Below are positions 2,985 through 45,205 of a stretch of DNA of 64,000 bases, piece by piece (the stretch's first letter is position 1; each line of letters starts with the position of its first letter). This DNA is from Torpedo marmorata. Lineage: Eukaryota. The stretch is taken from positions 15,810,001-15,874,000 of the forward strand of contig OZ360232.1 of assembly GCA_977017645.1 (NCBI GenBank), given 5' to 3'. Under the pieces are notes generated by a model, which was not told where the DNA came from, searched no databases, and worked only from the letters and a program-made list of their open reading frames with translations. Made by a program: the position numbers and the translations under genes.

Positions 2985-3680
2985 TAAAAAGTCTGCAAAT
3001 GCTGGAAAATTAAAAGCCACAAACACAACGAGCTGGAGGAACTCAGCAGGTCAGGTAGCATCCATGGAAAGTGATAGACAGCCAACGTTTCAGGCTGAAA
3101 ACCCTTCATCAAGAATAGCGAGAACTAGGCAGAAGCCCAAATAAAAAGGTGAGGTAGGGGTGGAGGAGAACAGGCTGGCAGGTGAGAGGTGGATACAGGT
3201 GTGAGAGAGAATAAAATAAAGGAGCTGAGAGGGGATGGGGGAAGGGGCAGAGAAAGATGCACTCTGATAGGAGGAAGAAAGGGAAGGAGCTGCAGGAAGG
3301 AAGTTGTAGGTGACAGGCAGGTGGGGAGGGTGGGAGAAAGGAATGAGAAAGAAGGAATGAGCCCAGAGAGATGAGGAAAAGCTGGATCTTGGGGGGTGAG
3401 GGAGGGGGGTGGGCAGGGGGAAGGGGTTACCGGAAATTGGAGGGCAATATTGATGCCGCCTGATTGAAGATTACCAAGACAGAATATAAGGTGCTGTTCC
3501 TCCAATTTACACGTGACCCCAATTTGACAGTGCAGGAGGCCATGGACCCACGTGTCAGTGCAGGAAAGGAAAGTGGAACTGAATGGCTGACCACTGGGTG
3601 GTCCTTTCTGTCGCAGCAGACACAGTGAAGGTGCTCAATGAAGCGATTGATTTCCCCCAATTGACGACCAGTCACCCCGA
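2985..3680 (-). mobile_element. Penelope-like element remnant (GIY-YIG endonuclease C-terminus plus terminal repeat with hammerhead motif)
   Basis: Minus-strand peptide KLEEQHLIFCLGNLQSGGINI. Terminus gctggaggaactcagcaggtc...ccaacgtttcaggctgaaaacccttcatcaag shared with other copies in the window. Confidence 0.8.
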
Positions 3681-3808
3681 CGCAGAGGTGGTTGCATCAG
3701 GAGCACCGAATGTGTATTACACAATGATGTGCATGACCTGCACAGCTAAGAATGGGTTTATCATCCAACACATGCATTTTTTAATAATTACCCAGTTGGC
3801 AAACATAC

Positions 3809-3978
3809 CTAATTGGGCCCACAGAGGATTATAGGGGTTTGATTTTGAAAGCATGTCCACACTTTCAGAGGAATGTTTTTCCAAGAAAATCTTAATGGGA
3901 GGTTGACCATTTGGCATAACTGTGGGGACCCAGGCGAGATGATTCGTGAGCACAGCAGTAATCAGGGCAGGCAGAAAT
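3809..3978 (-). CDS. FNIP1: FNIP1 coding exon 13 (170 bp): [56 protein letters not shown](G)
   Basis: Near-identical to FNIP1 (ORF 3717..3992). Acceptor ttaatcag, donor gtatgt. Confidence 0.97.
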
Positions 3979-4669
3979 CTGATTAAAGACAAGATAAATA
4001 TTTAAGCAAATCAGATAAATCGATATCAATGCAAATTCAAGTTGCACATTTAATAATAAGCACACAGTTTTACCTTAAAACAAAGAGGAACATAAACATC
4101 TGACAATTATACATCATGGCATCATTTCACTGTGATGGATGACAGAAGAAATTTAAATGCCAATCTGTCAGTCTCCTGCTCTCATGCCAGATAACCTTAG
4201 GGTCAAGAAGCCCAAAAATACTGACACACTGTTCAAGAACTTTTGAATCTTTTGCTTGAAATACTGAAGTTCAGAATCATCTTTCCAAAATAAAGCTTGT
4301 GATTAATAATCTGTCTTTTACTTACTTTAAAGCCATAAGAATATGCAAGCAAACCATTAAATGAATATTTTAGATTCACCAACACACATCTATGGAACTA
4401 CTTGCAGAGTTGCGAGATTCTGATTACTTTATCAGTCTAAAGGATTCTGAAAAATATTTAAAAAAGACAACCACCTGAAGCTCCAACCATAACCCACAGA
4501 AGGAAGATTTAACCCCCAAGTGGCCCTTTGATAATCCTAAAAATAGGCCACGCACCCATGCAAGCAATTAAGTGCCCTTTCTAACTTTCTCACCCAAGCA
4601 CCCAAAAATAGCAAGGGACTTGCCGTGAATTGGAGTTGTGGAGGGAGAAATAAATCAATTCTTATCACA

Positions 4670-4890
4670 AAATATTTTCAGGGAAGGCATTAGGGGGGAA
4701 CTTTTTCCACTCAGTGTGGAACGAGCTGCCAGCAGAGGTGGTGAATGCAGGTTTGATTTTGACATTTAAGAGAAGATTGGATATGCACATGGATAAGAGG
4801 GCTATGGTGCAGGTGCAGGGCAATGGGACTAGGCGGAATGGTTCGGCACAGACAAGATGGGCCAAAGGACTATAGTGTTCTATGATTCTT
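4670..4890 (+). mobile_element. CR1-clade LINE 3' fragment
   Basis: GNFF...VWNELPAEVVNAG-type C-terminal coding remnant and CR1 3' UTR. Confidence 0.7.
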
Positions 4891-7165
4891 GTAAGAATTG
4901 GTCAATCCCAACATGATAAATCATGGGGATTTCCTTTTCAAAAACCTGGGTATTTCTGTAGGCAATAAATACCAGGAGATTCAAGTTAATTATGCTGAGA
5001 GTGCAGCTCATCTGGCTTTCTGAGAGAGCTAGGAGGTACTTCAATGAGCAGAACTGAACATTTGAAAATTCAAGGTCACCGTAATATGCCTCACTGTGCA
5101 AGTTCTAATGTGGCAAGGGAATGGTTAGTGCACAAAAAAATCAAAGCACTTCTGGAGCGATAATAATATGCAATAGGTTTAAAAATTTCTCAAAATTCAG
5201 TACGATATTTAAGATTTTCAATGGTTTTGTAAATTTTCCTTTATTTTTCTAATGAAACGGGGAAGTGATTGACTTCTTCGTATTTTTGTGCAATTCCATA
5301 CTCAACCAGTAGATGGAGCAGAAATCATTATTGAGCTGAGCAGGAAACCAATTTGGCTGAGAACCTGGTCTCCATACTTTTCTGACTCCCTTCTCCATCT
5401 CTGAACTGCAGTAAAGAGAATATAAAGTAGAGCCCCTCCCCTGTCATTCTTTTACACAAGCCTATGAGGCAGAGATTCATTTACAAACAATTGATTTTTG
5501 CCATGCACTTTTAAGATTCAAATAAGTAAAAAGACATCTAAAATATGATGTGGAAATGTATTTACAATCCCAATAACATGGTGTAGTTCTCAACTCCATC
5601 CACGTTAGGGATAGTCAACGTGACTTTGTGCAAGGGAGGTCATGTCTTACAGACTTGATTGAGATTTTTTGAGCAGATGACAAAGTTGATTGAAGAGGGA
5701 AGGGCAGTCGACGATGTCTACATGTAAAACATTTAACATGGCCCCTCATAGAATGCTGATCCAGAAGACTGAGGCACATGGGATCCAGAGAAACTGGGTG
5801 AACTGGATTCAAAATTGATTTGACCATAAAAGACACATGGTAGTGGTGTAGGGGTGTTATTCCAACTGGGAATCTGAGACCAGTGGTACTCTACATGGGT
5901 CAGTGTTGGGACTTCTGTTGTTTGCGATGTAAATGATTTGGACACAAATTTAGGTGGGCTGATTGGTAATTTTGCAAGCAACACAAAATTTGGCACAGTG
6001 GAACATAGTTAAAGAATCCATCAAGACATAGATCACTTGAGAATAAGGATGTAGAAATCGGAGATGGAATTTAATCCCAACAACTGTCAGGTATTGCACT
6101 TTGGAACATCAGGAAAAACCAAGGGAGGTGGCGTTTGTGTCATCATCAATTCATCGTGGCGCACAAATGTGACGGTCATGTCCCAGTCCTGCTCGCCTGA
6201 CCTGGAACATCTGGTGATCAAGTGCCGCCCATTCTACCTGCCGAGGGAGTTCACCGCCATCATCCTGGTCACAGTGTACATTCCGCCCCAGGCTAACGTC
6301 AGGCTGGCACTGGAGGGACTGTGATAAATAGCCATGAGACAGCACATCCTGATGCCTTCCCGATCATTGTAGTGGACTTCAATCAGGCCAACCTGAAGAA
6401 GTCTCTGACAAACTACCACCAACACATCACATGCGAGACCAGGGGAGCCAACACACTCGACACCATGAAGAACACCTACCGAGCCATACCACGACCGCAC
6501 TTCGGCAAGTCTGATCACCTGGCCGTACTTCTACACCCGGCGTACAAGCAGAGCCTGAGGACCACAGCACCAGTAGTGAAGACGGCGAAAGTATGGTCAA
6601 GGGAGGCGGAGGAGCGTCTGCAGGACTGATTTGAATCGGTGGACTGGAACATATTCAAGAACTCATCCATAGACGAATGAATGTGCAACAGGTGTCACCG
6701 ACTTCATCAAGACCTACGTGGATGAGTGTGTGCCCACGCGCAAACACCGTTCCCCAACCAGAAGCCTTGGATGAATCGGAGGATTCGCAACCTGCTGAGG
6801 GCGAGATCAAGGGTGTTTAAGGCCGGGGATCTAGATATCTACAAGAAGTCCAGGTACGACCTGCGGAAGGCCATCTCTGAAGCAAAGTGGCAATTCCAGA
6901 GGAAGCTAGAGACAGAGACAGATACACGCCAGCTATGGCAGGGAGTGCAGACCATTACAGCCTACAAAGCGAGGGCGAACACCATAGATGGCTGTGATGC
7001 TTCATTACCTAATGAGCTGAACACCTTCTATGCCCACTTTGAGAAGGAGAACCAAACAGTGCCTACGAGAATCCCTGCAAAGGCTGAGGACTCTGTGATA
7101 ACTGTCTCTGAGGACGACGTCAGAACATCATTCGGCAAGGTTGCTGCCTAAGCCCGTTGCTTTTT

Positions 7166-10100
7166 AAAAAAAAAATATTTTATTTTAAGATTTTCAACTT
7201 TTTCACAATAATACAAAATAATGTAAAATATACATTAAACATCAGTTAAATTCGATACATAGGAATTTCGTATTACCATGAATCTAACCCCATCTAAACC
7301 ACCCTTACTAAAACAACCCACCCTCCACCCTTCCCATCCCTTATCCCCTCCCCATACTAGAACTAAAAAAGAAAAGAGAAGGGAAAAGAACAATTGAAAA
7401 TATATCTGTACATATCCATGGCTCGATGCAAGAAATTCAACAATGTTCATTCTTCAAGTTTAAACTTAAGAGAGTCAGCGGGGTCTGGGATGCAGGGCAA
7501 CATATTTAAATATTCATTCCTGATAATTGGATAAATGGACGCCAAATTTGTAAAAAGAGTCCATACTTATTCCTCATATTGTATGTTATTTTTTCCAATG
7601 GGATGCATCTACTCATACTCAGATTTGTGTCCGATTTCCAGGTCACTGCTATACATTTCCTAGCTACTGCTAGTGCAATTTTTACGAATTTTAATTGCCA
7701 TATGGATAATTTCAATTTTGGTCTAGCTCCCTCTACATTCCCCAATAAGAACAAGTCAGGGTTTTGAGGAAATGTAACACCTGTAACTAGTTTTAACCGG
7801 TTTCCTAACTCTGCCCAAAAATCTTTAACTTTTGAACATGACCACGTTGAATGTAAGAATGTTCCTTCTTCTTCTCCACATCTAAAACATCTATTTGGTA
7901 TTGTAGAATTCATCTTGTTCAGTTTTTGTGGTGTGAGGTATATTTGGTGTAAGAAGTTGTATTGTACCAGTCTATTTCTTACATTAACAGTATTAGTCAT
8001 ACTATCTAAGCATAGATCCGACCATCTTTTTTCATCAATTATAATATTAAGATCTTGTTCCCATCTTTGTCTGGACTTATGAAGTCCTCGTTTTTGAGCT
8101 CCCTTCTGTAACAAAGAATATACTATAGAAGTAAATTTCTTAGTGTTTCCTTTCCTAACAATAGTTTCTACTTCGCTACACTCTTGTAACAACATGTCTG
8201 GACCTAGTTTTCCTCTTAAAGAAGCTGTTAGTTGAAGATAGCAAAAAAATGTATTTCTAGGTATTCCGTATTTATTCTGTAATTGTATGAATGACATCAT
8301 TTGATTTCCTTCATAACAATCTTCTATTTTCTTTATTCCTTTTAATGACCATGTATTTAAAAAAGGGTTATCTTTTGTAAATGGTATCAGATTGTTCTGT
8401 ATCAATGGCATTTTAGGTGATACATTTCCTTTTAATCCTATATCGTCATTAACCTTATTCCAAGCATTAATCAAATGTTTTAATAACGGTGTTTCTTTAA
8501 CACCTGTCAACAGTTTTGAATTCCATTAATATATAAATTCTTGTGACTTCTTCTCTCCTATTTCTCCAAGCTCTATTCCAACCCACGCAGGTCTTTCTTC
8601 AGTTTCAAAAAAAGAAGCAATAAAACGCATCTGTGCCGCTCTATAGTAGTTCTTAAAATTAGGGAGTTGTAAACCTCCCAATTCATATTTCCATGTTAAA
8701 CGTTCCATCGAAACTCTTGACATTTTTCCTTTCCATAAAAACTTTCGCACCTGTTTATTTAAGTCTTGAAAGAATACCTGTGGTAGTGAAATAGGTATAG
8801 TCTGATACAGGTACTGTATCCTTGGAAATATATTCATCTTAATACAATTAACTCTTCCTATCAATGTGATTGGTAGATTAATCCATTTCTCTAGATCCTC
8901 CTTAATCTTATTAAGCAATGGCACATAGTTCCACTTGTATAAATTCTTTAATTTATTATCTGTCCGGACCCCTAGGTATTTTATTCCATTATATCCATAT
9001 AACCATATAACAATTACAGCACGGAAACAGGCCATTAGGCCCTTCCAGTCCGCACCGAACCAAACATTCCTATCTAGTCCCACCTACCTGCACCCTGCCC
9101 ATAACCCTCCACTTCCTTCTCATCCATATACTTGTCCAACTTTTTCTTAAATAATAAAATTGACTCTGCCGCCACTACTTCTCCCGGAAGCTCATTCCAC
9201 ACCGCTACCACTCTCTGAGTAAAGAAGTTCCCCCTCATGTTACCTCTAAACCTCTGCCCCTTAATTCTTAGCTCATGTCCTCTTGTTTCAATCTCTCCTG
9301 TTCTTAATGGAAATAGTCTATCCACATCCACTCTGTCTATCCCCTTCATAATTTTAAATACCTCTATCAAATCCCCTCTCAACCTTCTACGCTCCAAAGA
9401 ATAAAGACCTAATCTGCTCATCTCTCCTTGTACTCTAGATTCTTAAACCCAGGCAACATTCTGGTAAACCTTCTCTGCACTCTCTCCACCTTGTTGATAT
9501 CCTTCCTATAATTTGGCGACCAGAACTGCACACAGAACTCTAAATTAGGCCGCACCAAAGCCTTATATAATCTCAACATCACTTCCCAACTCCTATATTC
9601 TATGCAATGATTGATAAAGGCCAGCATACTAAAAGCCTTCTTCACCACCCTGTTCACATGTTTCCACCTTCAGGGAACGATGCACCGTTATTCCTAAATC
9701 TTTCTGCTCTTCTGTATTCATCAATGCTCTCCCATTTACTACATATGTTCTGTTCTGATTCTTCCTACCAAAATGAAGCACCTCACATTTATCAGCATTA
9801 AACTCCATCTGCCATTTTTCAGCCCACTTTTCTAAGCAGCCCAAATCCCTCTGCAATCCTTGAAAACCTTCTTCATTATCCACTAGTCCACCTATCTTAG
9901 TATCATCTGCATATTTACTAATCCAGTTTACCACCCCATCATCTAGATCATTGATATATATAACAAACAACAACGGGCCCAATACAGATCCCTGAGGCAC
10001 ACCGCTGGTCACCTGCCTCCAACCTGACAGACAATTATCCACTACCACTCTCTGGCCTCTCCCTTCCAGCCAATGTTCAATCCATTTGACTATCTCAGAA

Positions 10101-12282
10101 TTTATACCTAAAGACTGCACCTTCCTAACTAACCTTCCATGCGGAACCTTATCGAAGGCCTTACTGAAGTCCATATAGACAACATCCACCGCGCTACCCT
10201 CATCCACATTCCTAGTCACCTCTTCAAAAAATTCAATCAGATTGGTCAAACAGGACCATTTAAACTGGGTACTTCTTTTGCATACAGCGTAATCTCCTTC
10301 TGTAAGAGGCATAACTTCACTTTTATCCCAATTTATCTTATACCCAGAAACTTTTCCATATTCCTCCAGCTTAAAATGTAGTTTTTGCAAAGAGGTCTCA
10401 GGTTTGGTCAAGTATATTAACACGTCATCCGCGAATAGACTTATTTTATGTCGCTCTTGACCAACTGTAAATCCTTTAATTTCCACATCACTTCTAATCG
10501 CTTCTGCCAACGGTTCTATCGCTAGTACAAATAAAGCTGGTGACAGTGGGCACCCTTGCCGACTAGATCTTGTTAAGTAAAAGGGGGTTGATAATTGTCA
10601 ATTTGTCACTACTTTGGCTTTTGGAGCATTATATAACGCTTTAATCCAATCTATGTACGTCTTCCCAAACCCGAATTTTTCCAAAACTTTAAATAAAAAG
10701 TCCCACTCTAACCTATCGAAAGCCTTTTCTGCATCCAGTGCCACTGCTACACTTCGTACTTTCCTTTTTTGAGCTAAATACATAATACTGAGTAATCTTG
10801 CTACGTTATCTGCTGCTTGTCTTTTTTTTTTTATGAAGCCTGTTTGGCAGAAATTTTGTTATCCTATTTGCCAGAATCTTTGCTACAATTTTATAATCTG
10901 TGTTCAGTAATGAAATTGGTCTATATGACGAGGGTTTCAATGGATCTCTATCTTTTTTTGGTATTACTGCAATTATTGCAGTTGAGAAGGACTCTGGAAG
11001 TGTATTGGTCACTGATGCTTGTTGTAACATATCCATAAAAATGGGAGTCAATAATTCCTTGAATTCTTTATAAAACTCTGGTGGAAAACCATCCTCTCCC
11101 GGTGCTTTGTTACTTTGTAATGAGCTAATTGCATCCTTTACTTCCCTTTGTGTAATCTGTGTGTTTAAATCTAGACGCTCTTTTACATTTAATGTTGGCA
11201 AATTTATCTGAGATAAATAATTATCAATTTTTCTATCATCTTGTAATGATTCTGATTTGTATAGATCAGAATAGAACTTCCTAAAAGAATCATTTATGGT
11301 TTGGGGTTTATAACTAATGACATCGGTCTCTGTTTTAATTGCATTAATTGTTCTAGATGCCTGCTCCGTTTTTAATTGCCATGCTAATACTTTATGCGCG
11401 CGTTCGCCTAGCTCATAGTATCTTTGTTTAGTTCTTATAATGGTTTTTTCCGTTCTATAAGTCTGTAACATATTATACTGTAACTTTTTATTAGTTAATT
11501 GCCTACTTTTATCTATAGAACTCCTCGTTTGCAAGTCTTTTTCTAAGATCGTTATCTCTTTTTCTAATTTATCTATTTCTTTCATATAATCTTTTTTAAT
11601 TTTTGAAGAGTAGCTTATAATTTAACCTCTTAAAAATACTTTTAAAGTTTCCCATATTACAAATTTATCAGTCACTGAATTTAGATTTGTTTCACAAAAT
11701 ATCTGAATTTGCCTCTTTATAAAATCACAGAAATCTGTTCTTTTTAATAACATAGGGTTTAGTCTCCATCTATATATCGATTTCTCTTTATCAGGTACCG
11801 TCACTGTCATCAGTAAAGGAGAATGATCAGACAGGATTCTAGCCTTATAATCTATTTCCAAAATTCTATCTTGTATTTGAGCTGAGGCTAAAAATAAATC
11901 AATTCTAGAATAAGTATCATGTCTAGTAGAATAAAATGAGAAATCTTTATCTCTAGGGTGAATTCTCCTCCACGCATCAATCAAATTTAAATCCTTCATT
12001 AACACCAACGTGGCTTTCGCTGCTTTAGTTCTCCTTCCTCCTCTTGTAGATTTGTCCAGACCCGGATCTAAACAAAAGTTGAAATCTCCCCCAATTATGA
12101 TATTTTCATGCGCTTCCGCTATATTGAGAAAGGTCTCTTGAATAAATTTATCATCATCTGTATTAGGAGCATATATGTTCAAAAATGTCCAAAATTCAGA
12201 GAATATCTGGCAGTTAATCATTACATATCTTCCTGCGGGGTCTGTTACAACACTTTGTATCTTAATTGGAAGATTCTTTTTC
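7166..12282 (-). mobile_element. Near-complete L1-clade ORF2 copy (family B), interrupted by a CR1 element
   Basis: EN (NIYAPN, GGDFN, SRID, SDHSP), RT (YRPISLLNTD, LDAEKAFDR, LFADD), Cys motif CFRC. Flanked by 14-bp duplication gcccgttgcttttt (7152-7165 / 12283-12296). Confidence 0.93.
8991..10256 (-). mobile_element. 5'-truncated CR1-clade LINE inserted in L1
   Basis: SCLTNLIEFFEEV...GVPQGSVLGP...KYADDTK...LVRPNLEFCVQFWSP. Microsatellite tail (ttatatgg) near 8991-9010. Splits the L1 reading between QFKW and NGIKYLG. Confidence 0.93.
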
Positions 12283-15200
12283 GCCCGTTGCTTTTTGACG
12301 GTATTGGAACCCCTTGCTATTGCTCTATGGGAGAGTAGAGATTTTTCAGGGATAATTAGGAATGGTGTTGAACACAAAGTTTCTTTATATGCAAATAATC
12401 TTTTGCTTTTTATTTCAAATCCAGAGGTTTCTATACCAAATATATTAACCTTATTTGCCCAGATGGGCCAGTTTTATGGCTATAAATTAAATCTGCTTAA
12501 GAGTGAATTATTACCCCTAAAGGGGTGTTCTTTAAGATATTCCAATTTCCCTTTTAAGTTAGTGAATGATCAGTTCAGATACCTTGGAATTACAATTACT
12601 AAGAGTTACAAGAATTTATTGAAGGAAAATTTTTCGGTAACATTTAATCAGGTTAAAGGACTATTATCGGGATGGTCACCTTTGTCTATTACTATGATTG
12701 GACGTATTAATTCGATTAAAATGAATATATTACCGAAAGTTTTATATCTTTTCCAGTCTATACCAGTCTTTATTCCTAAATTTTTTTTGATTCATTGGAT
12801 TTGCTTATTTCTTCGTATATATGGCAAGGAAAACAACCTCGTTTAAACAAAATCCATCTTCAAAAACCTAAAAGGAGTGGAGACTGTCACTTCCAAATTT
12901 GCTCCTTTTGTTAAAATTTGCTAAAATTTGATAAACTAGCTGACCGCCCTTTTTGGATGGAAATAGAATTGAATTTTATTAAAAATTCATCTATGTTGGC
13001 AGTCCTAGGATCCTTTTTACTTTTTCTAAATTAACAAGCAATCCGATAATGAGACATAGGTTGAGAATATGGGTACAATTTAGAATTTTTTTGGAATTCA
13101 GTTTTTCTCTTGCCAGTCCTATTGTAGCTAATTATATTTTTTTTACCTTCTTTGTTAGATACAGGTTTTAGGGAGTGGTATAGACTGGGTATCAAAAATT
13201 TTAAAGATCTTTTTATTCGAGATAATTTTGCTTCTTTTGAACAATTGAGGGCAAAATTTAAATTACCCAATAGTCATTTTTTCAGATATCTACAAGTCAC
13301 ACATTTTGTTCAATCCAAGCTCTCTGATTTTCCAAGGATCGCTGAAACAAACATTCTTGATTTACCTTTTGACTTTCAATTTTCTCATAGAGGCTCAATA
13401 TCAATTATTTATAATAATTTGATGGACTTGAAAATAGCTTCGCTAGTTAAGATTAAGAGTGATTGTGAGCAGGAATTGGATTTGTCACTTACAGATGAGG
13501 ACTGGGATACGGTTCTAAATTTGATTAATGACTCCTCCTTCTGTGCGTGACATTGTTGCAATTTAAAGTAGTGCATAGAGTACATATGTCAAAAGTTAAA
13601 CTAACTCACTTTTATTCTGATATTGATCCATTATGTGATAAGTGTAAAATTTTTGAGGCTTCATTGATACATATGTTTTGGACTGGTCTTAGTTTAGAAA
13701 AGCTTTGGAAAAATTATTTCCAAACTTTATCAGTCATTTTTAGGGTCAATTTAGAACCTTGTCCATTAATTGCTTTATTTGGTTTTTCTCAAGAAGATAT
13801 ATTATTAACTTCATCTCAGAAGCGAATTTTAGCTTTTACCTCAGATAGCTAGACAGGCAATTTTTGATGAAATAGAAAGACAGTACTCCACCCACATTCA
13901 ATGGTTACAGAAGGTCATGTCCTTCCTAAGTTTAGAAAAAATCAGATATAATGTTAAAGATGTAAAGGTGAATTTTTACAAGACGTGGGGCCCATTCATG
14001 GACTATTACCATAATTTAAAGAATTAGGGTGTTTGGATGCTCCTGAGAAGCATTGTCTGGTTTCTGAAAGTCGTCTTTCGATCCTATATTTATTAGATAT
14101 GCAAGTTAACCTTGTTTAGAGGGGAGGGTTTGATTAATAGCAGGGGGGGGTCTTTTCTTTTCTTTTTTTTTCTTTTGAGATATTTTGATAAAATGGGTTT
14201 GATTGAGAATGGTACACACAATTTATACTATGTATGACTAAGGTACTATTTGAGAAGTACTTATTATCTGTCTCTCTTATAGTTCAGCCCATGTATTGGA
14301 TTACTGAGTGTGTATGTTTTTTTTATATTAAACTCAATAAAGATATTTTAAAAAGAAAAGAACATCATTCAAGAGGGTGAAACTTCGCAAGGCGTCAGGC
14401 CCTGACGGCGTACCTGGCAGGATACTGAAAATCTGCGCCAACCAACTAGCTGGAGTGTTCATGGACATTTTCAACCTCTCATTGCTGTAGTCAGAGGTTC
14501 AAAAGGGCATCAATCATTCCGGAGTCCAAGAAGAGCAGTCTGAGCTGCCTCAACGACTATCGCCCAGTAGCACTAACTTCTACTGATGAAATGCTTTGAG
14601 AGGCTGGTCATGGCCAGAATTAACACATACCTAAGCAAAGGTCTGGACCCACTGCAATTCGCCTATCGTCACAATCGCTCCACAGCAGACGCAATATCGC
14701 TGGCTCTCCACTCAGCTCTGATTCACCGCGAAAACAGCAACTCATACATACGGCTGCTCTTCATCGACTACAGCTCAGCCTTCAATACCATTATTCCCTC
14801 AGTGCTGGTCAAGAAGCTCCAAACTCTGGGCCTCTGCACCCCCCTCTGCAACTGGATCCTTGACTTTCTCATTGGAAGACCACAGTCAGTATGAATTGGA
14901 AACAACGTCTCCTCCTCACTGATTATCAACACAGGTGCACCCCAAGGATGCGTGCTTAGTCCACTGCTCTACTCGTTATACACCAATGACTGTGTGGCCA
15001 GGCACAATTCCAATGCTATCTACAAATTTGCCGATGACACCACAGTTGTCGGCAGAATCACAAACGGCAATGAGGAAGCGTACAGGAGGGAGATAGATCA
15101 GCTCGTTGAGTGGTGTCATGCCAACAACCTTACGCTCAACGTTAGCAAAACCAAGGAGATGATTGTGGACTTCAGGAGGAAGTCAGGAGAACACGACCCA

Positions 15201-24543: not shown

Positions 24544-24582
24544 AAAATTACTATCATAAATGATAATTCATTTAATTCTTAC

Positions 24583-29287: not shown

Positions 29288-29302
29288 ATTTACTCAATTT
29301 AA

Positions 29303-33230: not shown

Positions 33231-33231
33231 G

Positions 33232-33735: not shown

Positions 33736-34922
33736 ATCATGGTATATGTTCATTTAAAAACTTGTTTATAGATTCTAATTTTATTACTTTTGAACAGTTG
33801 GTTAATAAATATAACTTATCTAGAAACAATTATTTTAGATACTTTCAAGTTAGGAATTTTATAAATTCCTTGAGATTGGAGTTTCCTTTAGATTTAAAGT
33901 TAGTAATCATAGAAAAGGTTTTTACTATCACTCCTGATATACCAAAACCATTGTCAGTATTTTATAACCTTTTAAAATAAAATGTGATACAGCATGTGGA
34001 TAAAATAAAGGAGGCTTGGGAAAGAGATTTTTTTAAATTTATTTATTTATTTATTTTTTTTAAAGAAGTTTTTTCACCTTCAGTGTGGTCCAATATTTTG
34101 GACTGTATCCATACCTCTTCATTATGTGTAGTTCACAGAGCTCATTACTTAAAATCTTTACTGGCTAAATTTTCATCAAATATATCATCTATGTGTGATA
34201 GATGTAATGTTCATGAAGGTACATTATTTCACATGTTTTGGTTGTGCCCTAAATTAGTTAGATTTTGGAACAAATTTTTTTGTACTCTTTCTTTGGTTTT
34301 AGCTACTCAATTAGATTCAAATCCATTTATAGCAATATTTGGTATAAATGATCCTAGTAATCATGACCTTACTAATAATCAAAAACATGTGATTGCTTTT
34401 TCTTCTCTGGTTGCAAGGCGACAGATCTTGCTAAAATGGAAGGATGGTAATCCTCCTATCTATGAAGATTAGCTATCAAGTTTAACATTAGAAAAGATGA
34501 GATGTTCAAATATTAAATTAAACCTAAAATTTACTAATATTTGGGGTTCCTTTATCGACTATTATCAGAGTTTATGATTCCTCATGATTTGAAGTTATAT
34601 TATTTCTACAGATCAGTGCAATTCTGTAGTGGGGGTAGGTGGTAGGCTAGTTTAGATTGCTTTAGCTTTTATAAAAAAATGTATTATGATAAAATTACTA
34701 TATTATCTTTTTTTGTGGCTTGGTTCTTTTTATACCTATTGGTATTATACTAAATTGTAAAGAAAAAAAATAAATTGATATATATCTGTAATGTATACTC
34801 TGTTATGGATGGATTAATGGAACATGCGATAATGCTTTTCTTTGCTTTTTTTCTGTAAATGTATATAGTGAATGAACTGTTATATCCATGATTTTATGGA
34901 ATTAATAAAGGGATTTAAAAAG
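33736..34922 (+). mobile_element. 5'-truncated L1-clade LINE (family D) inserted in a CR1 remnant
   Basis: ORFs 33762..33980 and 33984..34472 (FRYFQVR, CDRC...HMFWLCP). Duplication agagtacaag at 33726-33735 / 34923-34932. Confidence 0.87.
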
Positions 34923-35009
34923 AGAGTACAAGTCTGAGGATCCCTGAAAGTGGTAGCACAGGTAGAGAAGATGGTGAAGAAGGCATATGGGATACTTGAG
35001 CAGTCAAAA

Positions 35010-35635
35010 TATTGCTGGAGGAACTCTGGTCTGAACCCTTTATCAAAACAAAGATACAAATAGGTGAAATTACATTCAGAAAGGGTTAAAAAGCTGGAAA
35101 AGGTGATAAAGGACAAAGATGAGAGAGGTGGAGGGACAGGAATAAGTAGAAACCATTAGGAAAGAGGATGGAGAAAGAAAAGTTAGAAAGAAGAAAGTAA
35201 ATATTAAGTACAGGAGTAGATAAAGAGTTGAAAACAGTGGAATCAGATAAGGTTGGGGATTACGTAAAATTAGAAAAGTCAATGTTCATGCCATTTGGTT
35301 TAAGGCTGTTAAGGAATAATGAATGACGTGTTGTTCCTCAAGTTTACATTTGGCCTTGCCCTGACAATGGACGAGGCCAAAAATAGACATGTCATTGTCA
35401 GAATGGTTGGGGGAGTTAAAATAATTGGCCACTGGAAGCTCAAGTTTGGACCCACAAATAGAACATAGGTTTTCGGTGAAGCAGTCACCCAATGTGCATT
35501 TGGTCTCATACTTGTCTTCATTAGCAGGGAATGGACGTTATCAAGGGTTCAGGTCTGAAACGTTGGTTACACATCTTTCCCTCCTATGGACGCTGCGTGA
35601 CTTGCTGAGTTCCTCCAGCATTTTGGTGTTTTTAT
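35010..35635 (-). mobile_element. Penelope-like remnant (GIY-YIG region) with inverted termini
   Basis: ETKCTLGDCFTENL...PVANYFNSPNH...KLEEQHVI on the minus strand. gctggaggaactc at left and gagttcctccagca at right. Confidence 0.78.
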
Positions 35636-37035
35636 TATAAACACTGATCGTGCCACTGCTGGAGTGCTGTGTCAAGTTTTGATGCAATGGAGGCGTTTTG
35701 GTTCTCTGTTACTTCAAAAGTGATAAGAATGCACATTTTCTATTCAAAAGAACTTCAATTATTCAACAATAATGTAGGAGAAAGTTGATCATGAATTTAC
35801 TGAAGGCACTGGTATATCAATGCTGTGAGCTTTATACAGCATACAGAGGCAGACCATTCAATCATGAAGAACAATTAAAACCCAATTCTTCCCCATTAGC
35901 AATGGTTTTGTTTAATATTATAAAAAGCACCAATATCATCCCAAGCAAACTTGGCTAATCTGAAAGATTAAATTTTTAACAGGAAACTGATCTTCGATTA
36001 CAATGTAATTGCCACAAAATGTCAATCTCCCACCCCCTCTCGACGATCTCACTGTCCTCTCTCACTAAAAAGATCAGAATCCTTCTTACACCAGAAGATA
36101 TTGTACAGCAGTGAAATTTGAGCTTTTTTCCTTGAAATTTACTTACCAAAACCTAAAAGCTACATATCTGCCAAAACTTACTAAGAGATGCCAGGAAACC
36201 ATTGTTCAAAAATCACCAAAAGAAGATTGTCTCTCAAACAGAAAACATGCAAGCTTGAATGCAACAAATGATCAGCAACACTCAGAAATCATTTACCAGT
36301 TACCCTAAAGAAATTTTAAAACATGTTAACATTTAAGTACAGGTAAATGAGGTGTTCATAAATATTTATTTCTTAAGTATTATTTGTAATCTGGTGCGTC
36401 AATTTTTAAAATCAGAGTTTAAAGGCACTATTTTCCACGCATCATAAATTATTTGTATTATATGTGGAAATTAGGTTTACATAGTTCACAAATTGGAAGC
36501 TCCAGTGGTGCATCCAACATTGGAATGCTGTTCATTGAGCATAAAAATAAGATTGAAATCTTAGTCTCACGTCAATCAGCATTAGAGTTTCAACAGTTCT
36601 CAGTTGGATGGATCTTTGTACAGGAGTGTGATCAAAGAGGGAAGGAAAAGGTACAAGAAAATTGACGAGTCCTATTATCTTGGGTACTGTTAACTGGATT
36701 ATACCAAACTAATTACAGATAACTCACAATAAAAATGTACCCTGGGCAATGAATTTTAACATTTGAAATGCAAGCTGATGCACTTTATTTTGGAAAAGGA
36801 TCAAGCCTACATAAAGTAATATTCTACCCAGGAGAGCAAGCAAAGGAATCCAAGGGTACAGGTGAACAAATTCATCAAACTCTGCACTACAAGCCAGCAA
36901 AGTAAATTGAAAATATTAACAGAGAACTGGGATTCATCTCTAGGTGTACAGAATTCAACGGCAGTGATACTAAACTTGGTATAGTACTCTGTAAATGTAC
37001 AAATCTTGTGTCCATACATTAAAATGCACATAGCA

Positions 37036-38275
37036 TAGTAAAACTCCAATAATCTGATATCTGACCATTTGGAAATCTCGTTAGTTTGACATATGGCTCA
37101 CCAGGAGTTCAAGGGGAATGCGAGAATTGGGTCCCTGGTGTGTTTCAAAGGAACATGGGAAACATCACAACAATGACAAAACTCTGATAATCGGAAGACC
37201 AGTCAGTACGAATTGGAAACAACGTCTCCTCCTCACTGATTATCAACACAGGCGCACCCCAAGGATGCGTGCTTAGACCACTGGTCTACTCATTATACAC
37301 CCATGACTGTGTGGCCAGGCACAATTCCAATGCTATCTACAAGTTTGCCGATGACACCACAATTGTCGGCAGAATCACAAACGGCAATGAGGAAGCGTAC
37401 AGGAGGGAGATAGATCAGCTCGTTGAATTGAATGATGTAACGACAACAACCTTACGCTCAACGTTAGCAAAACCAAGGAGATGATTGTGGACTTCAGGAG
37501 GAAGACAGGGGAACACGACCCAGTCCTCATCGAGGGCTCAGTAGTGGAGAGGGTCAAGAACTTCAAATTCCTGGGTGTCAACATCTCCGAGGATCTGTCC
37601 TGGAGCCTCCACGTTGATGCAATCACAAAGAAGGCTCGCCAGTGGCTATACTTTGTGAGGTGTCTGAGGAGCTTCGTTATGTCATCGAAGACTCTCGAAA
37701 ACTTCTACAGGTGTACCGTGGAGAGCATTCTGGCTGGTTGCATTACTGCCTGGTATGGAGGCGCCAACTCTCAGGACAAGAGTAAACTCCAGAGGGTTGT
37801 TAACTCGGCCTGTGACATCACAGGCACCAGACTTCACTCCATCGAGGACATCTACATGAGGCAGTGTCTAAAAAAAGCAGCCTCTATCCTCAAAGACCCC
37901 CACCACCCAGGCCATGCCCTCTTCACTCTGCTTCCATCGGGAAAAAGGTACAGGAGACTAAAGACGAGCACTCAACGGCACAAGGACAGCTTCTTCCCCG
38001 CTGCCATCACATTCCTGAATAATCAATGAACCAAAAACACTGCCTTACTTTTCGTGCACTATTATTTTTATTTTTTATAGTAATGTCGTAAGATGGTTAT
38101 AATATGAATGTTAATTGCACTATGATGCTGCCGCAAAACACCGAATTTCATGACTTGTTCATGACAATAAATTCTGATTCTGATAATCTGGCACCCGTTG
38201 CATTTTGATAGTGCTGCACTAGCAAATTTTCAGACGATCAGACTTTCTGAATGTTGGATTTTCAGAGTTTTACTG
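37036..38275. mobile_element. Tc1/mariner (Tigger/pogo-like) MITE interrupted by a Rex1 insertion
   Basis: Imperfect TIRs tagtaaaactcc / cagagttttactg with TA on the right. Confidence 0.55.
37193..38178 (+). mobile_element. 5'-truncated Rex1/Babar LINE, same family as 14359-15848
   Basis: ORFs 37269..37484 and 37481..38029 are near-identical to 14952..15707. Tail attctgattctga. Duplication tctgataatc at 37183-37192 / 38179-38188. Confidence 0.92.
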
Positions 38276-39592
38276 TACTGGGAAACAAAAGTCAGAATCA
38301 TACACTACAGAAAAAGGTCCTTTGGCCCAACTCGTGTGTGCCAACCATCAAACACTCATCTGCACTACTCCTACACTATTCCATGTTTCTTCTTGCATCC
38401 CCATCAACTCCTTCCACCTCCCCAATTCTTCATCATGGACATTTTACAGAAGCCAGTTAACCTACTAACCATCATGTCTCTGGCAATGTGTGAGGAGGTT
38501 ACAGTGCCCAAGGGAAACCCATATTCTCTAAGAATGCAAAGTCCACAGATTCCACCCATGGTCTCTGGAGCTGTAAGGCAGCACCACTAACCTGTAGGTC
38601 ATAAGCCTTTCTTAGGAAGTCTTTCAACCCATGAATGGGGGGAGGGGGCATTCTTCAGAAAAAAGAAAAGACAAATAAAAGCAGATAGAAGTCTGAAAAA
38701 TGATGAATGGATTCAATAGATTGGATGAGGAAAAGTATTTCCTTGTGAAAGAATCCAAAATTAGAGGTTATAAATACAAGACAGTTGTTAATAAATACGA
38801 CTGGGAGAGGAGGACATTTATTTATTTGAGACAATAGTAGGGAACTTATTACCACAGGAAGTGGTTTTGGCAAGTAGTACTGATGCTTTCACAGGGAAAT
38901 TTAAGCACCTGAGAGAAAAAAGAAATAGAAAAAGGTGCTGAAAGAATGAGATGATAGACAGAATAGAAAGATACAAATAGAGAATTAACGCACATTAGCT
39001 TGACTGGGTCAAACGTCGGATGCCGTATATTCTAAAGATACATCCAGCACATGTTGAATAGCTTTGAAGACAGGAAAGACCAGGAATAGTTGGTCAGCAG
39101 AGTTTGTTTGCTTCCAAAGTACATTTTAGGGAATGACTGCTTGATTTGATTATTTTTGAACTAGAAACAACATAAATCATAAATATATATAAAAATAGAA
39201 ACTGGAGGGTATTTATTAATGAAACAGAAAATAGACAGTGCATTCACTAGATCACTCTGTCTGTGGAAGCAATAAAACTGAGGCTAGGAACACAAGCAGA
39301 CATGCAAAGTGACTGAGAGAAAAGGGGGAAACAATAGAGGGAACAAGTCAGGCAAAAAGGAAAAGGTAACATTTTTTCTTTCGTTTGGCAAATTAAAAGT
39401 TAGCAACACGTGAAATGCAATAATCCTATAGAAATAATTAATGGATGATCTAAAGCCCCTTGTTTTGCAATTTGAATGAATTATTGTAATGTCATTTTAT
39501 AGAAGTTATGAACCTCATTTCCACAGCAACATGCTCATGCCCAGCGATTGTGCATTGACACAGAGTCCAAAACCCAGAAACACAATGCAAAC

Positions 39593-39682
39593 CTGCAAAG
39601 AAAGAAGCGCTCCGTATCAGGCGGAGCGGTGCTGGCTCAGAAACACCTGGGGCCCGCCTAGGGCTGCAAAGCTGCGAAAAAC
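39593..39682 (-). CDS. FNIP1: FNIP1 exon 7 (90 bp, symmetric phase 1-1, cassette-type): [30 protein letters not shown]
   Basis: Matches human [28 protein letters not shown] (recalled). Acceptor ctccatag, weak donor gtttgc. Lies within ORF 39492..39860. Confidence 0.93.
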
Positions 39683-40168
39683 CTATGGAGCAAAAGTGTG
39701 ACAAAAATAGAAAAAAAAACACAAGACAGAAGAATAGGATTAGTAAAGATATCAGACAGAAGTTAGATAATAACAAGGACTCTTTTTTTGAAACCAGAAA
39801 CAACGCCAGATATTTTTTTTTTTTTTTTAAATGAAAGCTTAAAATTAATTCTGGAACCAAACTTATTTTACACGTACATACCCAAATGTAAACTCACACC
39901 TTTCTCTACCTCTCAATACTTGGTTTGAAAAGTCAAAAATGCTGAAAATAAATGATGTGCCCACTGCATATAAAGAAATAAAATGACCAAAACTGAAAAA
40001 GAAACCATATAGCTTTTTTCTGTGAATTTCTGGCACATGGACCAAAAGTAGATACCGTGGGGAAAATATACTTCAGTTATTGCACTGGTTCAGAGGATTC
40101 AGGACAAAGATATTATCAAGCCTGGGAATTACAAAGGAATAGTTTGTAACAAACATCAAAATTTCAGT

Positions 40169-40679
40169 AGTAAAACACGAAAATCTGTAGACACCGTGGT
40201 TGAAGTAAAAAACACAAATGCTGGAGAAACTCAGCAGGTCAAACAGTGTCTTTTATGTAGCAAAGGTAGAAATATATAACCGACGTTTCAATTCCGGGTC
40301 ACACTCCCACACTCACATGTCTGTCCATGGCCTTATGTACTATCCCACCCAGACTACCCGCAAATTGGAGGAACAACATCTCATTTTCCGTCTCGGCACT
40401 CTCCAGCCAGATGGCATTAACATTGACTTTTCTGCTTTCCACTAAACCTGCTTGTCGTTCCCTTCCCCTCCCCCCTCACCTGTCCTTCCTGTTTTTCTCC
40501 AGCTACCTAGCCATCCCTCCTCCCCCTCTTTGCTGTTGTCCCCTCCCTCCTTTCTCCACCTATCATCTCCTGCCTTTGCCACCTCCCCTTTTCCCCTCAC
40601 TCTTTTGTTCGGACGCCTGCCGGCATTTTCTCATACTTTGATGAAGGGCTCAAGCCCGAAACGTCGGTTATGTATTTCT
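40169..40679 (+). mobile_element. Truncated Penelope-like insertion with inverted 5' terminus and 14-bp TSD
   Basis: Peptide FNSGSHSHTHMSVHGL...RKLEEQHLIFRLGTLQPDGINIDF. Inverted terminus 40169-40289. atcaaaatttcagt duplicated at 40155-40168 / 40680-40693. Confidence 0.87.
40632..40672 (+). ncRNA. Minimal type I hammerhead ribozyme-like motif (U3 variant) in a Penelope terminus
   Basis: catact-TTGATGA-a-GGGC tcaa GCCC-GAAACGTC-ggttatg: core boxes, 4-bp helix II, palindromic ACGT helix III, GUC cleavage triplet, partial helix I (cata/tatg). Confidence 0.7.
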
Positions 40680-41467
40680 ATCAAAATTTCAGTGATGTGC
40701 ATCACTAAGGAAAAAACGGCCACTCTCACACCTTGGCGTTCAAGACTGTAAATCACTAAATTATCTATAGAAATTGTCTGTCCCCAGCAGTGAAAAATAG
40801 ATTATAATCATGAGGGACAAACTTGAAATCTTCCTACCTAATTAAAGACGGCACTTAAAGCAAATATTTTTAATAACGTTTAGAATCAATTTAACATTTT
40901 TAATTTGTTCATTACTATGCTTCTATTATATATTGAAAAATTAATAGTTATTGGATTTACAATCTATGAAACAGGACATCAACCAAAAGGAAAATCTATA
41001 ACAGCTAATGAACGTTATTAGCAACCACTCAACCAATATATTTTAACTCTTCTACTATCCCTAAGCTTCAACAAGAGAAACTGTACAACAGATTTGATTT
41101 CAGATTTTCAATCATGTTTTTTATATAATATAACAATATATTATATTATAATATATGTATTAAATATTTATATATTTTTGAATTCACAGAATTAAACCTA
41201 CAAGCAAAAAATCATGTCAGAGAAAGTACCTATCACAATGCTGAGGGAGAAAGAAATGTTTGTAAAATTTGAATTTCTTTTTTGTAATGCACTCAGCAAA
41301 TTACTATTTCAGTAAGTTGTGTTGCATATGTGTATGTGCAATTCCTCACAATGGATAGCCTCATGTCTAAAAGCAGCAGAGGCTGAGGCATACTTGTATA
41401 AGATGGGAAAGGGAAAAAAAATTAAGTCTTCAAAGTATATGACTTCATGAGAAAAACGTTAATCAGG

Positions 41468-41890
41468 AAAGTCTGCAGACTATTGCTGTGATTGAGCGCA
41501 ATACACACAAGTGCTGGAGAACATCAGCAATTCAAGCAGAGTCTATAGGAAGCAAAGGGATATAATCAACATTTCAGGCCAGAGCCCTTCATCAAGGTAT
41601 GAGCAGAAAGCAGGCACGCATCTGAATAGAAAGGTGGGTTGGGGGGTGAGGTGAGAAGGGGAGGAACACAGGCCAAGAAGGCTTTTCTCTCCTGCTCTCC
41701 CACCCTCATTCATTTATGACCTCTTGCCTGCGCTCCTTCCTCCCCTACCCCTTCTCTCCTGCACCCCCACCCCCCACCCCCACTTCTTTTAATTTAGGCG
41801 CTTGCCTGCTTTCAGCTCCTACCTTGATGAAGGGCTCAGCCTCGTAACTTTGGTTATAATCCCTTTGCTTCCTGTAGAAGCTACATGACT
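41468..41890. mobile_element. Older Penelope-derived fold-back element with two opposed, decayed hammerhead motifs
   Basis: Left arm (aggaagcaaagggatataatcaacatttcaggccagagcccttcatcaaggta...gcaggcacgc) is an imperfect inverted copy of the right arm (gcgcttgcctgc...taccttgatgaagggctcagc...atccctttgcttcct). Confidence 0.75.
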
Positions 41891-41914
41891 CACCACACAA
41901 GAAAACCAAATTAG

Positions 41915-43324
41915 AATAGCAGAAGTCCAGGTGCCACTTGTGAGTAGAGGGGAGGACTGGAATTTAAATAGCAGAAGTCCAGGTGCCACTTGTGAGTAGA
42001 GGGGAGGACTGGAATTTAAATAGCAGAAGTCCAGGTGCCACTTGTGAGTAGAGGGGAGGACTGGAATTTAAATAGCAGAAGTCCAGGTGCCACTTGTGAG
42101 TAGAGGGGAGGACTGGAATTGAAATAGCAGAAGTCCAGGTGCCACTTGTGAGTAGAGGGGAGGACTGGAATTTAAATAGCAGAAGTCCAGGTGCCACTTG
42201 TGAGTAGAGGGGAGGACTGGAATTTAAATAGCAGAAGTCCAAGTGCCACTTGTGAGTAGAGGGGAGGACTGGAATTTAAATAGCAGAAGTCCAGGTGCCA
42301 CTTGTGAGTAGAGGGGAGGACTGGAATTTAAATAGCAGAAGTCCAGGTGCCACTTGTGAGTAGAGGGGAGGACTGGAATTTAAATAGCAGAAGTCCAGGT
42401 GCCACTTGTGAGTAGAGGGGAGGACTGGAATTTAAATAGCAGAAGTCCAGGTGCCACTTGTGAGTAGAGGGGAGGACTGGAATTGAAATAGCAGAAGTCC
42501 AGGTGCCACTTGTGAGTAGAGGGGAGGACTGGAATTTAAATAGCAGAAGTCCAAGTGCCACTTGTGAGTAGAGGGGAGGACTGGAATTTAAATAGCAGAA
42601 GTCCAGGTGCCACTTGTGAGTAGAGGGGAGGACTGGAATTTAAATAGCAGAAGTCCAGGTGCCACTTGTGAGTAGAGGGGAGGACTGGAATTTAAATAGC
42701 AGAAGTCCAGGTGCCACTTGTGAGTAGAGGGGAGGACTGGAATTGAAATAGCAGAAGTCCAGGTGCCACTTGTGAGTAGAGGGGAGGACTGGAATTTAAA
42801 TAGCAGAAGTCCAAGTGCCACTTGTGAGTAGAGGGGAGGACTGGAATTTAAATAGCAGAAGTCCAGGTGCCACTTGTGAGTAGAGGGGAGGACTGGAATT
42901 TAAATAGCAGAAGTCCAAGTGCCACTTGTGAGTAGAGGGGAGGACTGGAATTTAAATAGCAGAAGTCCAGGTGCCACTTGTGAGTAGAGGGGAGGACTGG
43001 AATTTAAATAGCAGAAGTCCAGGTGCCACTTGTGAGTAGAGGGGAGGACTGGAATTGAAATAGCAGAAGTCCAGGTGCCACTTGTGAGTAGAGGGGAGGA
43101 CTGGAATTTAAATAGCAGAAGTCCAGGTGCCACTTGTGAGTAGAGGGGAGGACTGGAATTTAAATAGCAGAAGTCCAGGTGCCACTTGTGAGTAGAGGGG
43201 AGGACTGGAATTTAAATAGCAGAAGTCCAGGTGCCACTTGTGAGTAGAGGGGAGGACTGGAATTTAAATAGCAGAAGTCCAGGTGCCACTTGTGAGTAGA
43301 GGGGAGGACTGGAATTTAAATAGC
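41915..43324. repeat. Tandem minisatellite, 27 x 52 bp plus 6 bp
   Basis: Unit aatagcagaagtccaggtgccacttgtgagtagaggggaggactggaattta. Length 1410 = 27 x 52 + 6. Only two variable positions seen. Confidence 0.98.
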
Positions 43325-43777
43325 CATGGGTGTGCACTTCGCAGAGAGAAAAAAAACAGATGATCCAAAGCTAATTTACACAAGCATTTAGATACTTAGC
43401 AGTCAAGTAGAATAGGAAGCCCACTATCAGTGGGATAATTATCTTGCAAAAAATGTTACTTGTTCTATGTAATAAAAAGGGGTCTTATCTAGTAGCTGCC
43501 AAGCCAAGATTCAGAATGTCTTCATTCAAAAAGAATTTTGCCAATATAATTGATCAACAAAGAACGTGTGTAACACGTCAATGATTTAGGTCATTTGCAT
43601 CGGTCTGATAAGATGTTGAGTGCCGAGTTCAGATCCTCCTATACAAACACCTTTGAGAGAGAGAGGGAGAGAAAGACAAAAATCTGGAGAGAAAAAACAA
43701 GAGATCTGTAAAATTGACTCCACCAAAGCCAATATTTTGAAATGTTATTATTGTAGAAGCTCAAACCTGAAACTTAC

Positions 43778-43866
43778 CTACAAGACTGTTCATTAGAGTA
43801 TTTTGATCTGAGTAAGGTTTTGATGCCGTAGTGTCTTGATTAATAAATTCAAGGCTGTCTTGTAAC
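43778..43866 (-). CDS. FNIP1: FNIP1 coding exon 6 (89 bp): LQDSLEFINQDTTASKPYSDQNTLMNSLV
   Basis: LQDSLEFINQD motif. Acceptor ctttaag, donor gtaagt, phase 2-1. Confidence 0.94.
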
Positions 43867-44962
43867 CTTAAAGTACAATTAAAAATACACTCTTAATTCT
43901 TTAACAAAGACATTTTGCACAAAGCACAAAATAAGCTACTTTTTTGCACTCGGATAACTGTGAATATTTATCATCTATTTTTTGTATTTATTGTCTCTTT
44001 TTAATTCAATTAATAAGTACACGATTGCAGTGTTTTTATTAATTGTTTTTGTAGCTTTACATAAAATAACTGTTCAGCGGCAGCAAGAATTTCTGTACAT
44101 ACATGCATCGTACAATGTAATGACAATAAACTTCTGTCATAACTCACTACTGACCAATGTCTAATTTATTAAGCCATAGGTTTCAACACAAAATGTATTT
44201 CAAACCACCTGCAAGTGTACATTACGTACAATTTAGAAGTTGTAGCACATAATTAGAACATTTAACTGAAGACATTAAGGATGAAAGTTTAAGGCTTATT
44301 GTGATAGGAAATGTATCATATTTCTTTAGATGCTGTACAACTGTTTATTAACAGCACTGTAATACTTTCAGTTGTGAGAGCGATTCCCTTTCCTCTGTGT
44401 GCATATGACAAACAAAAATATACTAATCTTAAATGATGTCAATATTAATTTTCAAAGGTTAGGTTTTAGCCAAATCTCTATTCGTGAGACAAGGTTGCAA
44501 CAGCCAGATTTTGTTTCTCAGGAACATAAACTTGATCTTAACACTGGTTGCACATGGTCCTCATCTTTCTGTAGGATTTCAAAATATCTACTTGCCTAAA
44601 TAAATAAAACAATATATCATAGTTACTTCTTCATTTATGGAAACCTCAGTCAAAAGAAATGTTAAGTAATCAATGTACTAATATCAAAATCCAAAAATGT
44701 AACCTAGTATGCATGTAGAACTTGACTGTTTTCCAGAAGTCAACCACGAACACAGGTAAGAGAAAAGGCAAGATTTCTGAGTTCTGACCAAGTGATATTC
44801 AATGGCAGGTGAAAATTAGGGGTGATTAGTGATTTTAAAATAGTAATTAGCTGCCAGGCTCATTAGCCAAAATTAAAAGTGGACAAACAATGACTTTGAA
44901 ACATTATTTTAACATGCCAAACAAAAATGTAGGCAAAGCAACAGCCACTAATAGCAAGAAGC

Positions 44963-45205
44963 AAAACACAAAGTCTGCAGACACCGTGGTTGAAGTAAAA
45001 GCACGATGCTGAAGAAACTCAAGTCAAACAGTGTACTTTATATAGCAAAGATAAAGATACATAACCAACGTTTCGGGCTTGAACCCTTCATCAAGGTTGA
45101 TGAAGGACTTGATGAAGGGTTCGAGCCCGAAACGTTGGTTATGTATCTTTATCTTTGCTATATAAAGTACACTGTTTGACCTGCTGAGTTTCTCCAGCAT
45201 TGCAT
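44963..45205. mobile_element. Penelope-terminus fold-back: 73-bp arms with 1 mismatch, each containing a hammerhead motif
   Basis: 45023-45095 is the reverse complement of 45108-45180, with a 12-nt loop gttgatgaagga. Each arm reads TTGATGA-a-GGGTTC(A/G)AGCCC-GAAACGTT. Confidence 0.9.

Follow-up and report, generated by a model that had tools for sequence, protein, structure and literature searches.

Minimal hammerhead motifs with U3 and G8, probably derived by a one-base insertion, in an abundant Penelope-like element of Torpedo marmorata

Introduction

Penelope-like elements (PLEs) carry minimal hammerhead ribozymes (min-HHRs), which were defined in PMC4209133 using a search descriptor fixed at C3 (CUGANGA), and whose dimers were reported there to have low activity. 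We examined motifs of this kind in a 64,000-nt stretch of Torpedo marmorata DNA (contig OZ360232.1, positions 15,810,001 to 15,874,000; hereafter, the window), which contains exons of the gene FNIP1, and in the PLE family to which they belong. An initial annotation of the window had reported seven motifs, six of them with U instead of C at position 3 and with G retained at position 8 (U3/G8). Our analysis suggests, with a probability of roughly 0.55, that these are minimal type I hammerheads in an abundant PLE repeat, that U3/G8 became fixed in the dominant lineage, likely by insertion of a single U, and that the motif is likely a weak, conditional cutter that mostly goes unused.

Several natural hammerheads depart from the canonical C3-G8 pair. 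A U3-A8 variant was reported in Schistosoma (PMC4209133), and Fig. S3 of the same paper contains one row, a PLE motif of Saccoglossus kowalevskii, with U3 and G8. Natural U3-A8 and insertions next to C3, with slow cleavage retained, have been described (Perreault 2011, PMC3088659), and one saltern (halophile) hammerhead variant is written U3...G8 in PMC7151607. A mutational scan of a type III ribozyme found low activity for single mutants around C3/G8 (PMC9901934). In the Anolis PLE PAc, a Poseidon element, cutting by the hammerhead was protein-assisted and was not needed for insertion in vitro (PMC11167929). Our literature search found no measured natural U3.G8 Penelope ribozyme, and older studies of 3-8 exchanges or PLE dimers may hold such data.

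The Torpedo motif resembles the published PLE min-HHRs in its type I layout, the lack of a real helix III, the palindromic 15.2-16.2, the extra base after A9, the G10.1-C11.1 pair, the location in the pseudo-long terminal repeat (pLTR) and the many solo truncated copies (PMC4209133). It differs from them in that U3/G8 is the majority form, at ~10^5 exact copies and with a traceable one-base insertion, and in its 4-bp helix II; the variant discussed in that paper is U3-A8, and its descriptor would miss the Torpedo family. As in Anolis PAc, two 3' end sites define the tail and copying seems to use mainly uncut RNA, whereas PAc has a canonical C3-G8 pair and demonstrated cleavage (PMC11167929), and in Torpedo cutting is putative and the open reading frame (ORF) begins ~180 nt downstream of the motif. 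The saltern hammerheads HHmeta and HHphage share with it a natural insertion beside position 3, one variant being written with U3 and G8 (PMC3088659, PMC7151607); those are prokaryotic or viral and have two unpaired inserted bases (PMC3088659), whereas here one base is absorbed by a shift of helix I. In its features, rather than by phylogeny, the element can be likened to endonuclease-containing (EN+) PLEs of the Neptune clade, which have a C-terminal GIY-YIG domain, a cysteine motif in the linker between reverse transcriptase (RT) and endonuclease (EN), partial tandems, inverted 5'-truncated copies and a tail (bioRxiv 10.1101/2021.04.23.441226).

What is new here is the evidence for a one-base insertion of U3 and the accumulation of copy 5' ends just before the motif. 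The extra A after A9, which the initial annotation regarded as unusual, is a conserved feature of the published minimal hammerheads (PMC4209133). Likewise, its suggestion of an uncharacterised U3-G8 lineage was right in that U3/G8 is a real lineage trait, but U3/G8 precedents were already in print (PMC4209133, Fig. S3; PMC7151607).

Results

U3 is fixed in the dominant lineage

The motifs in the window are not chance occurrences. A descriptor left free at position 3 was run on 120 evenly spaced 10-kb stretches (1.2 Mb) of the 6.22-Gb genome, and it gave 50 matches as compared to 4 in the reversed control, or 35 as compared to 0 when helix I had to be at least 2 bp. A profile search of the same sample found 147 fragments of the family, which extrapolates to roughly 7-8 x 10^5 genome-wide. 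The core was readable in 87 of these fragments, with T at position 3 in 59, C in 21 and another base in 7. Exact patterns matched 89,225 U3 and 1,490 C3 motifs genome-wide and nothing in the reversed control, in agreement with the proposal of the initial annotation that U3 is characteristic of the family rather than a result of decay.

The unbiased sampled copies were sorted into subfamilies by their tail sequence, which left 12 unclassified. T occupied position 3 in 16/19 copies of A1, 18/20 of A2 and 11/11 of B, while C occupied it in 5/6 copies of C1, 5/5 of C2 and 4/4 of E; F was mixed (2 C, 2 T and 2 other). Genome-wide, subfamily B had 7,027 U3 and 195 C3 matches, and C1 had 344 C3 and 107 U3 matches. 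Within-group divergence was 2% in A1, 6% in A2, 11% in B, 9% in C1, 11% in C2, 13% in D, 14% in E and 14% in F, the old groups being represented by few copies. U3 is thus fixed in subfamilies that are 2-11% diverged, and several older subfamilies keep C3. The base at position 3 was also clustered on a short, unrooted tree (25 changes as compared to 41.4 after shuffling, 0/200), which was built from the 136 of 237 cores that remained after requiring a tail and thinning near-copies and which includes rows chosen for C3. In the contigs of four runs, no change at position 3 reached 5%, which tells little about other species, since two of the runs yielded no more than 8 and 5 records and the remaining pair may represent the same or a close species.

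These data leave hardly any room for the explanation that a C3 consensus decayed to U3 after insertion, and for subfamilies A and B it is refuted. U3 exceeds C3 by 60:1 overall and by 36:1 in subfamily B, and it is present in copies that are 98% identical as well as in each of the four motifs at a tandem locus. Decay does account for single copies, namely the window motif at 3084 and ~5/20 sampled C1 U3 copies that have C3-type spacing. The nearest relatives of 3084 have C3 with the same spacing, so a private C>T change within a C3 subfamily is the probable source of its U.

Besides, one sub-branch of 7 copies (loci L193, L175, L115, L169 and L118 among them), very young at 0.6% divergence, combines U3 with an A at N7 and a G.U pair between 10.1 and 11.1.

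With respect to the published class, the CUGANGA box with a C3-G8 pair was found in C1, C2 and E, and A and B instead have U3 with G8. The remaining hallmarks were present: the GAAANNUH box with a palindromic 15.2-16.2 (C-G as the majority in 7/8 subfamilies, E being decayed), the extra base between A9 and G10.1 together with the G10.1-C11.1 pair, and helix II together with a helix I no shorter than 3 bp (in A and B it has 3 bp).

Likely origin of U3 and the register of helix I

Positions flanking the motif were numbered with U3 as 0. An initiator-like A upstream of the motif was located at -4 in 22/31 C1 C3 copies, and at -5 in 12/20 C1 U3 copies and 32/36 B copies. Among C1 copies with a common tail, the U3 form was accordingly one base longer upstream than its C3 sisters. 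The shorter upstream spacing is also the one that fits the older C3 groups in alignment, which makes insertion of a U a simpler reading than a deletion in the C3 sister. Insertion of one U is thus the likely source of U3, and it would have pushed the old C3 into helix I.

Single copies were folded from -5, and the probability of the closing pair of helix I (2.1-1.1) was taken as the measure. The predicted probability was 0.88-0.97 in C1-U3, A2 and B copies, but only 0.001 in a C1 C3 copy, in which C3 itself paired into helix I. When U3 was changed to C in the C1-U3, A2 and B copies, the predicted value fell to 0.28-0.73, and because of this fall a U3C 'repair' control could fail through misfolding. 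Dimer cofolding gave alternative pairings. These predictions are consistent with a course of events in which C3 slipped into helix I in the C3 sister subfamily, so that the hammerhead register was lost, and the inserted U would have restored this register at the cost of the Watson-Crick pair between positions 3 and 8.

The insertion could alternatively leave the old C paired with G8 and the new U as a bulge, in which case no true U3.G8 wobble would exist. A C does stand directly before the U in B, A2 and C1-U3 copies, and natural insertions beside C3 retain slow cleavage (PMC3088659). In A1, however, this former C is now U (44/51 non-targeted copies), and predicted folding with the preceding C in the core leaves helix I with a single pair, making a bulged U very improbable.

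Constraint on the motif

The motif stayed constrained after U3 arose. The majority sequences of A1 and B differed at 0/10 invariant core sites, 0/10 stem sites and 2/7 free sites, as compared to 35/87 flank sites; with the core taken by itself, Fisher p was 0.013. The B set had been selected by core pattern, and unbiased B copies sorted by tail gave an identical majority. Position N7 takes U, A, G or C, and none of the subfamilies examined had an A8 majority. A tail box downstream was equally conserved (1-3/24 changes). The AUG inside the core was considered as a cause of the conservation and was ruled out, as N7 varies and the frame stops after 18 codons.

Both helices covaried between subfamilies, as the hypothesis of the initial annotation required. 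In a set of 61 copies, 56 of them distinct, that represented eight subfamilies, 80% of the helix cells paired, and two-sided changes were found in 43 cells as compared to 20.7 after shuffling (0/500) and at most 15 in slid controls. Across subfamilies, changes on both sides occurred at 5/7 pairs.

Conservation of this kind could also be explained if the motif were catalytically dead in the U3 lineage and kept as the initiator and downstream part of an internal promoter, or as a fold bound by the element's protein. An initiator-like YYANWYY sequence overlaps helix I in 24/36 B copies, and its A is where the 5' ends of copies peak; the tail box is just as conserved as the motif, and the U3 lineage lacks two-sided compensation. 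Drosophila Penelope has an internal promoter with an initiator (Inr) and a downstream promoter element (DPE) (PMC2377424). On the other hand, the tolerated changes follow the hammerhead map and the insertion is predicted to restore helix I. The downstream ACGT also lies off the canonical DPE spacing (counted by hand). We regard a purely non-catalytic role as unlikely.

Copy 5' ends and cutting

If cut RNA served as a template, copies would start at +28. Among 36 non-targeted young copies there were 26 truncated ones, the other 10 extending beyond the 600-nt reference; of the truncated copies, 11 started at -7 to 0 and none at +28. Genome-wide junction patterns gave 716 matches at -5, 172 at +28 and 106 at +34, or roughly 1,270, 460 and 190 after correction for differing filters. 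When loci were fetched, 30/30 matches at -5 (28 places) and 16/20 at +28 were true junctions. As the 5' ends are concentrated just upstream of the motif, most templates appear to be uncut, and the main 5' end just before the motif is most simply read as a transcription start.

These results bear on the reading that U3/G8 is a functional wobble core and that efficient cutting in vivo, by a dimer or with the help of protein, is part of the cycle of the element. In the U3 subfamilies the ten other core positions and both stems are the same while the flanks are ~40% different, changes are limited to N7, loop II, H17 and wobble-preserving stem changes, and there is a weak junction excess at the predicted cut; in Anolis, moreover, the PLE hammerhead cuts only with protein (PMC11167929). 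The copy 5' ends, however, lie mostly upstream of the motif, helix I of A1 is predicted to be weak, and no subfamily has moved to a compensating A8 majority. Activity of the wobble core is probably low because single mutants near C3/G8 are low in the mutational scan (PMC9901934), although that ribozyme is of type III. Efficient cutting in vivo is thus unlikely.

The Penelope-like element

As proposed in the initial annotation, the motif is a Penelope-borne minimal type I hammerhead: it lies in the pLTR of a PLE with RT and GIY-YIG domains. Members of the family of the window copy at 40638 are ~98% identical, and the motif is located ~195 nt past the end of the aligned GIY-YIG protein. A tandem locus (C31:152200500-152220499; L091-L092) revealed a unit of 4,193 bp, bounded on either side by the motif. 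At this locus a long ORF begins ~180 nt after the motif. The ORF matches RVT_1 and GIY-YIG, both with Pfam scores below the curated cut-offs, and its RT-EN linker carries a cysteine motif, CX2-5CxxC, as in the Neptune/Nematis definition (bioRxiv 10.1101/2021.04.23.441226). The 3' ends of the element are near +105 and +143. Two of the 4,193-bp units of the tandem locus are 99.2% identical, and one unit is broken by ~2.4 kb of another RT element resembling long interspersed nuclear elements.

A pyrimidine tract ending in CAG, which resembles a 3' splice site, is located ~30 nt upstream of the motif in subfamilies A2, B and C1 and is gone from the youngest subfamily. In Drosophila Penelope, an intron ends at helix I (PMC4209133).

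Motifs in the window

All seven motifs of the initial annotation were present, with sequences as it described them (YTGATGA, an extra a, a GGG..CCY hairpin and GAAAYGTY). The first box reads TTGATGA in six and CTGATGA in one (27415); one of the six U3 reads, 41824, has lost GAAA. The reported variety of helix II loops (TCAA, TCGA and TTTC) was also confirmed. The motifs represent several subfamilies, and five belong to the U3 lineage. An Rfam scan of the window gave 10 matches at E up to 5, none of which was a hammerhead family.

The motif at 40638..40665 (+), antisense to FNIP1, has U3 with G8, belongs to the youngest subfamily, A1, and has a predicted cut after 40665. It lies in a 5'-truncated PLE copy (40286..40680, +), 97.5% identical to the full unit, which comprises the GIY-YIG C-terminus (40287-40442), a pyrimidine-rich 3' region and the hammerhead. 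An inverted pLTR/tail stump at 40163..40289 (-), which starts inside the motif and was missed in the initial annotation, is part of the same insertion. A 14-bp direct repeat (40155-40168 and 40680-40693) flanks this inverted insertion and is likely a target-site duplication; such duplications were found only for the insertion at 40.2-40.7 kb.

Two A2 motifs with U3 form a head-to-head fold-back. The motif at 45067..45094 (-), sense to FNIP1, lies in the left arm (44957-45097), and that at 45109..45136 (+) in the right arm (45109-45201), where it begins at U3 and hence is without the native 5' strand of helix I. Short head-to-head fold-backs were seen at 44957-45201 of the window and at loci L118, L148, L175, L199 and L043; both arms start at about -5, and one end is short (+105) and the other long (+143).

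The partly decayed U3 motif at 41568..41595 (-), of the older subfamily B and sense to FNIP1, is in one arm (41455-41651) of an inverted pair. The partner arm (41773-41890) contains the decayed U3 motif without GAAA at 41824..41851 (+), which was placed in the U3 lineage because it resembles 41568. A tandem array of ~27 copies of a 52-bp unit, 98-99% identical, begins right after this stump (41909-43350), and a more diverged array of ~13 copies of a 46-bp unit occupies 57422-58064.

The motif at 3084..3112 (-) belongs to an old subfamily in which the nearest copies have C3, with a GIY-YIG remnant upstream at 3446-3711 (-), and that at 27415..27443 (-) is a canonical C3 motif of the old subfamily E, decayed. 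A further pLTR stump, truncated inside the core and also absent from the initial annotation, was found at 35541..35631 (+) beside an inverted GIY-YIG remnant (35266-35507, -). The assignment of all seven motifs to termini of the GIY-YIG-bearing family thus holds for 3084 and 40638, and the other five are in pLTR/tail stumps only; endonuclease remnants adjoin 3084, 40638 and the unlisted stump at 35541. Four of the pLTR stumps form the two inverted pairs.

The host gene FNIP1

FNIP1 occupies 3720..48568 (-), with exons within four stretches: an FNIP_N exon at 48458-48568 and FNIP_M exons within 21558-21809, 18663-18965 and 3720-4001. The best PDB match was FNIP1. The exons are on the minus strand, as are 3084, 27415, 41568 and 45067, so the four copies described as sense to the FNIP1 pre-mRNA are indeed so. 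The copies were described as intronic; 3084, however, lies 3' of the last exon seen, and its intronic status follows from the unfinished FNIP_M domain.

A role of the motifs in the FNIP1 pre-mRNA found no support in the window, where 4 copies are sense and 3 antisense. The sense copies 3084 and 27415 are old and decayed, and 41568 and 45067 are each predicted to form a long hairpin with the inverted partner, whichever strand is transcribed. Seven motifs in 64 kb correspond to the background at ~120 fragments per Mb. The intronic copies are probably inert stumps, and for FNIP1 the motifs likely do not matter.

Discussion

We propose that transcription of the element starts at about -5, so that its RNA would begin with helix I, and that cutting, if any, would need either a dimer formed via the ACGU palindrome or the protein that the element encodes. 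Together with the likely insertion of a U, this describes a hammerhead whose U3/G8 core is fixed in the dominant lineage and which is likely a weak cutter, active under some conditions, most RNAs apparently being left whole.

Several observations weigh against this proposal. The direction of the insertion or deletion is read from outgroups with few copies, the tree being poorly resolved and without a root; B, at 11%, does not differ in age from C1 and C2 (9-11%), and subfamily D has T in 2/2 unbiased copies. Helix I is predicted to be weakest (probability 0.09) in A1, which is the youngest subfamily and also the most abundant. A single register shift makes up much of the helix I 'covariation' that sets U3 apart from C3 subfamilies, and the copies are related, so the shuffle control overstates covariation. 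Within the U3 lineage, none of the changes found was compensatory on both sides of a pair, and because of this, constraint on an RNA structure is there indistinguishable from constraint on a DNA motif. The start site at -5 was deduced from the initiator consensus and from DNA junctions. As for cutting, the corrected count at +28 is about twice that of the +34 control. Of the 1,347 matches that span +23 to +34, the first 100 were tallied by eye; ~12 of these begin at +28, with ~9 at +30, 8 at +31, 3 at +26/27 and 15 at +24/25. It is possible that this weak excess at the predicted cut reflects some cutting in vivo.

A more far-reaching version of the proposal, which we consider decidedly unlikely, is that the one-base insertion produced a selected U3.G8 hammerhead at the start of the RNA, which cuts only with the element's protein or a partner RNA and so acts as a slow, tuned timer that aids copy number. 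If this were true, most RNAs would stay whole for copying, and the lineage would have been helped to hundreds of thousands of copies.

The purpose of PLE hammerheads is an open question, and the published cutting is weak, protein-assisted and dispensable in vitro (PMC4209133, PMC11167929). The genome of T. marmorata offers a dated natural series of alleles in this respect: C3 with helix I intact, C3 slipped, U3 restored and U3 weakened. The non-canonical alleles of this series were amplified most, which makes it a natural test of whether PLEs need RNA cutting. Searches with a descriptor fixed at C3 miss most of the hammerhead-like motifs in this genome.

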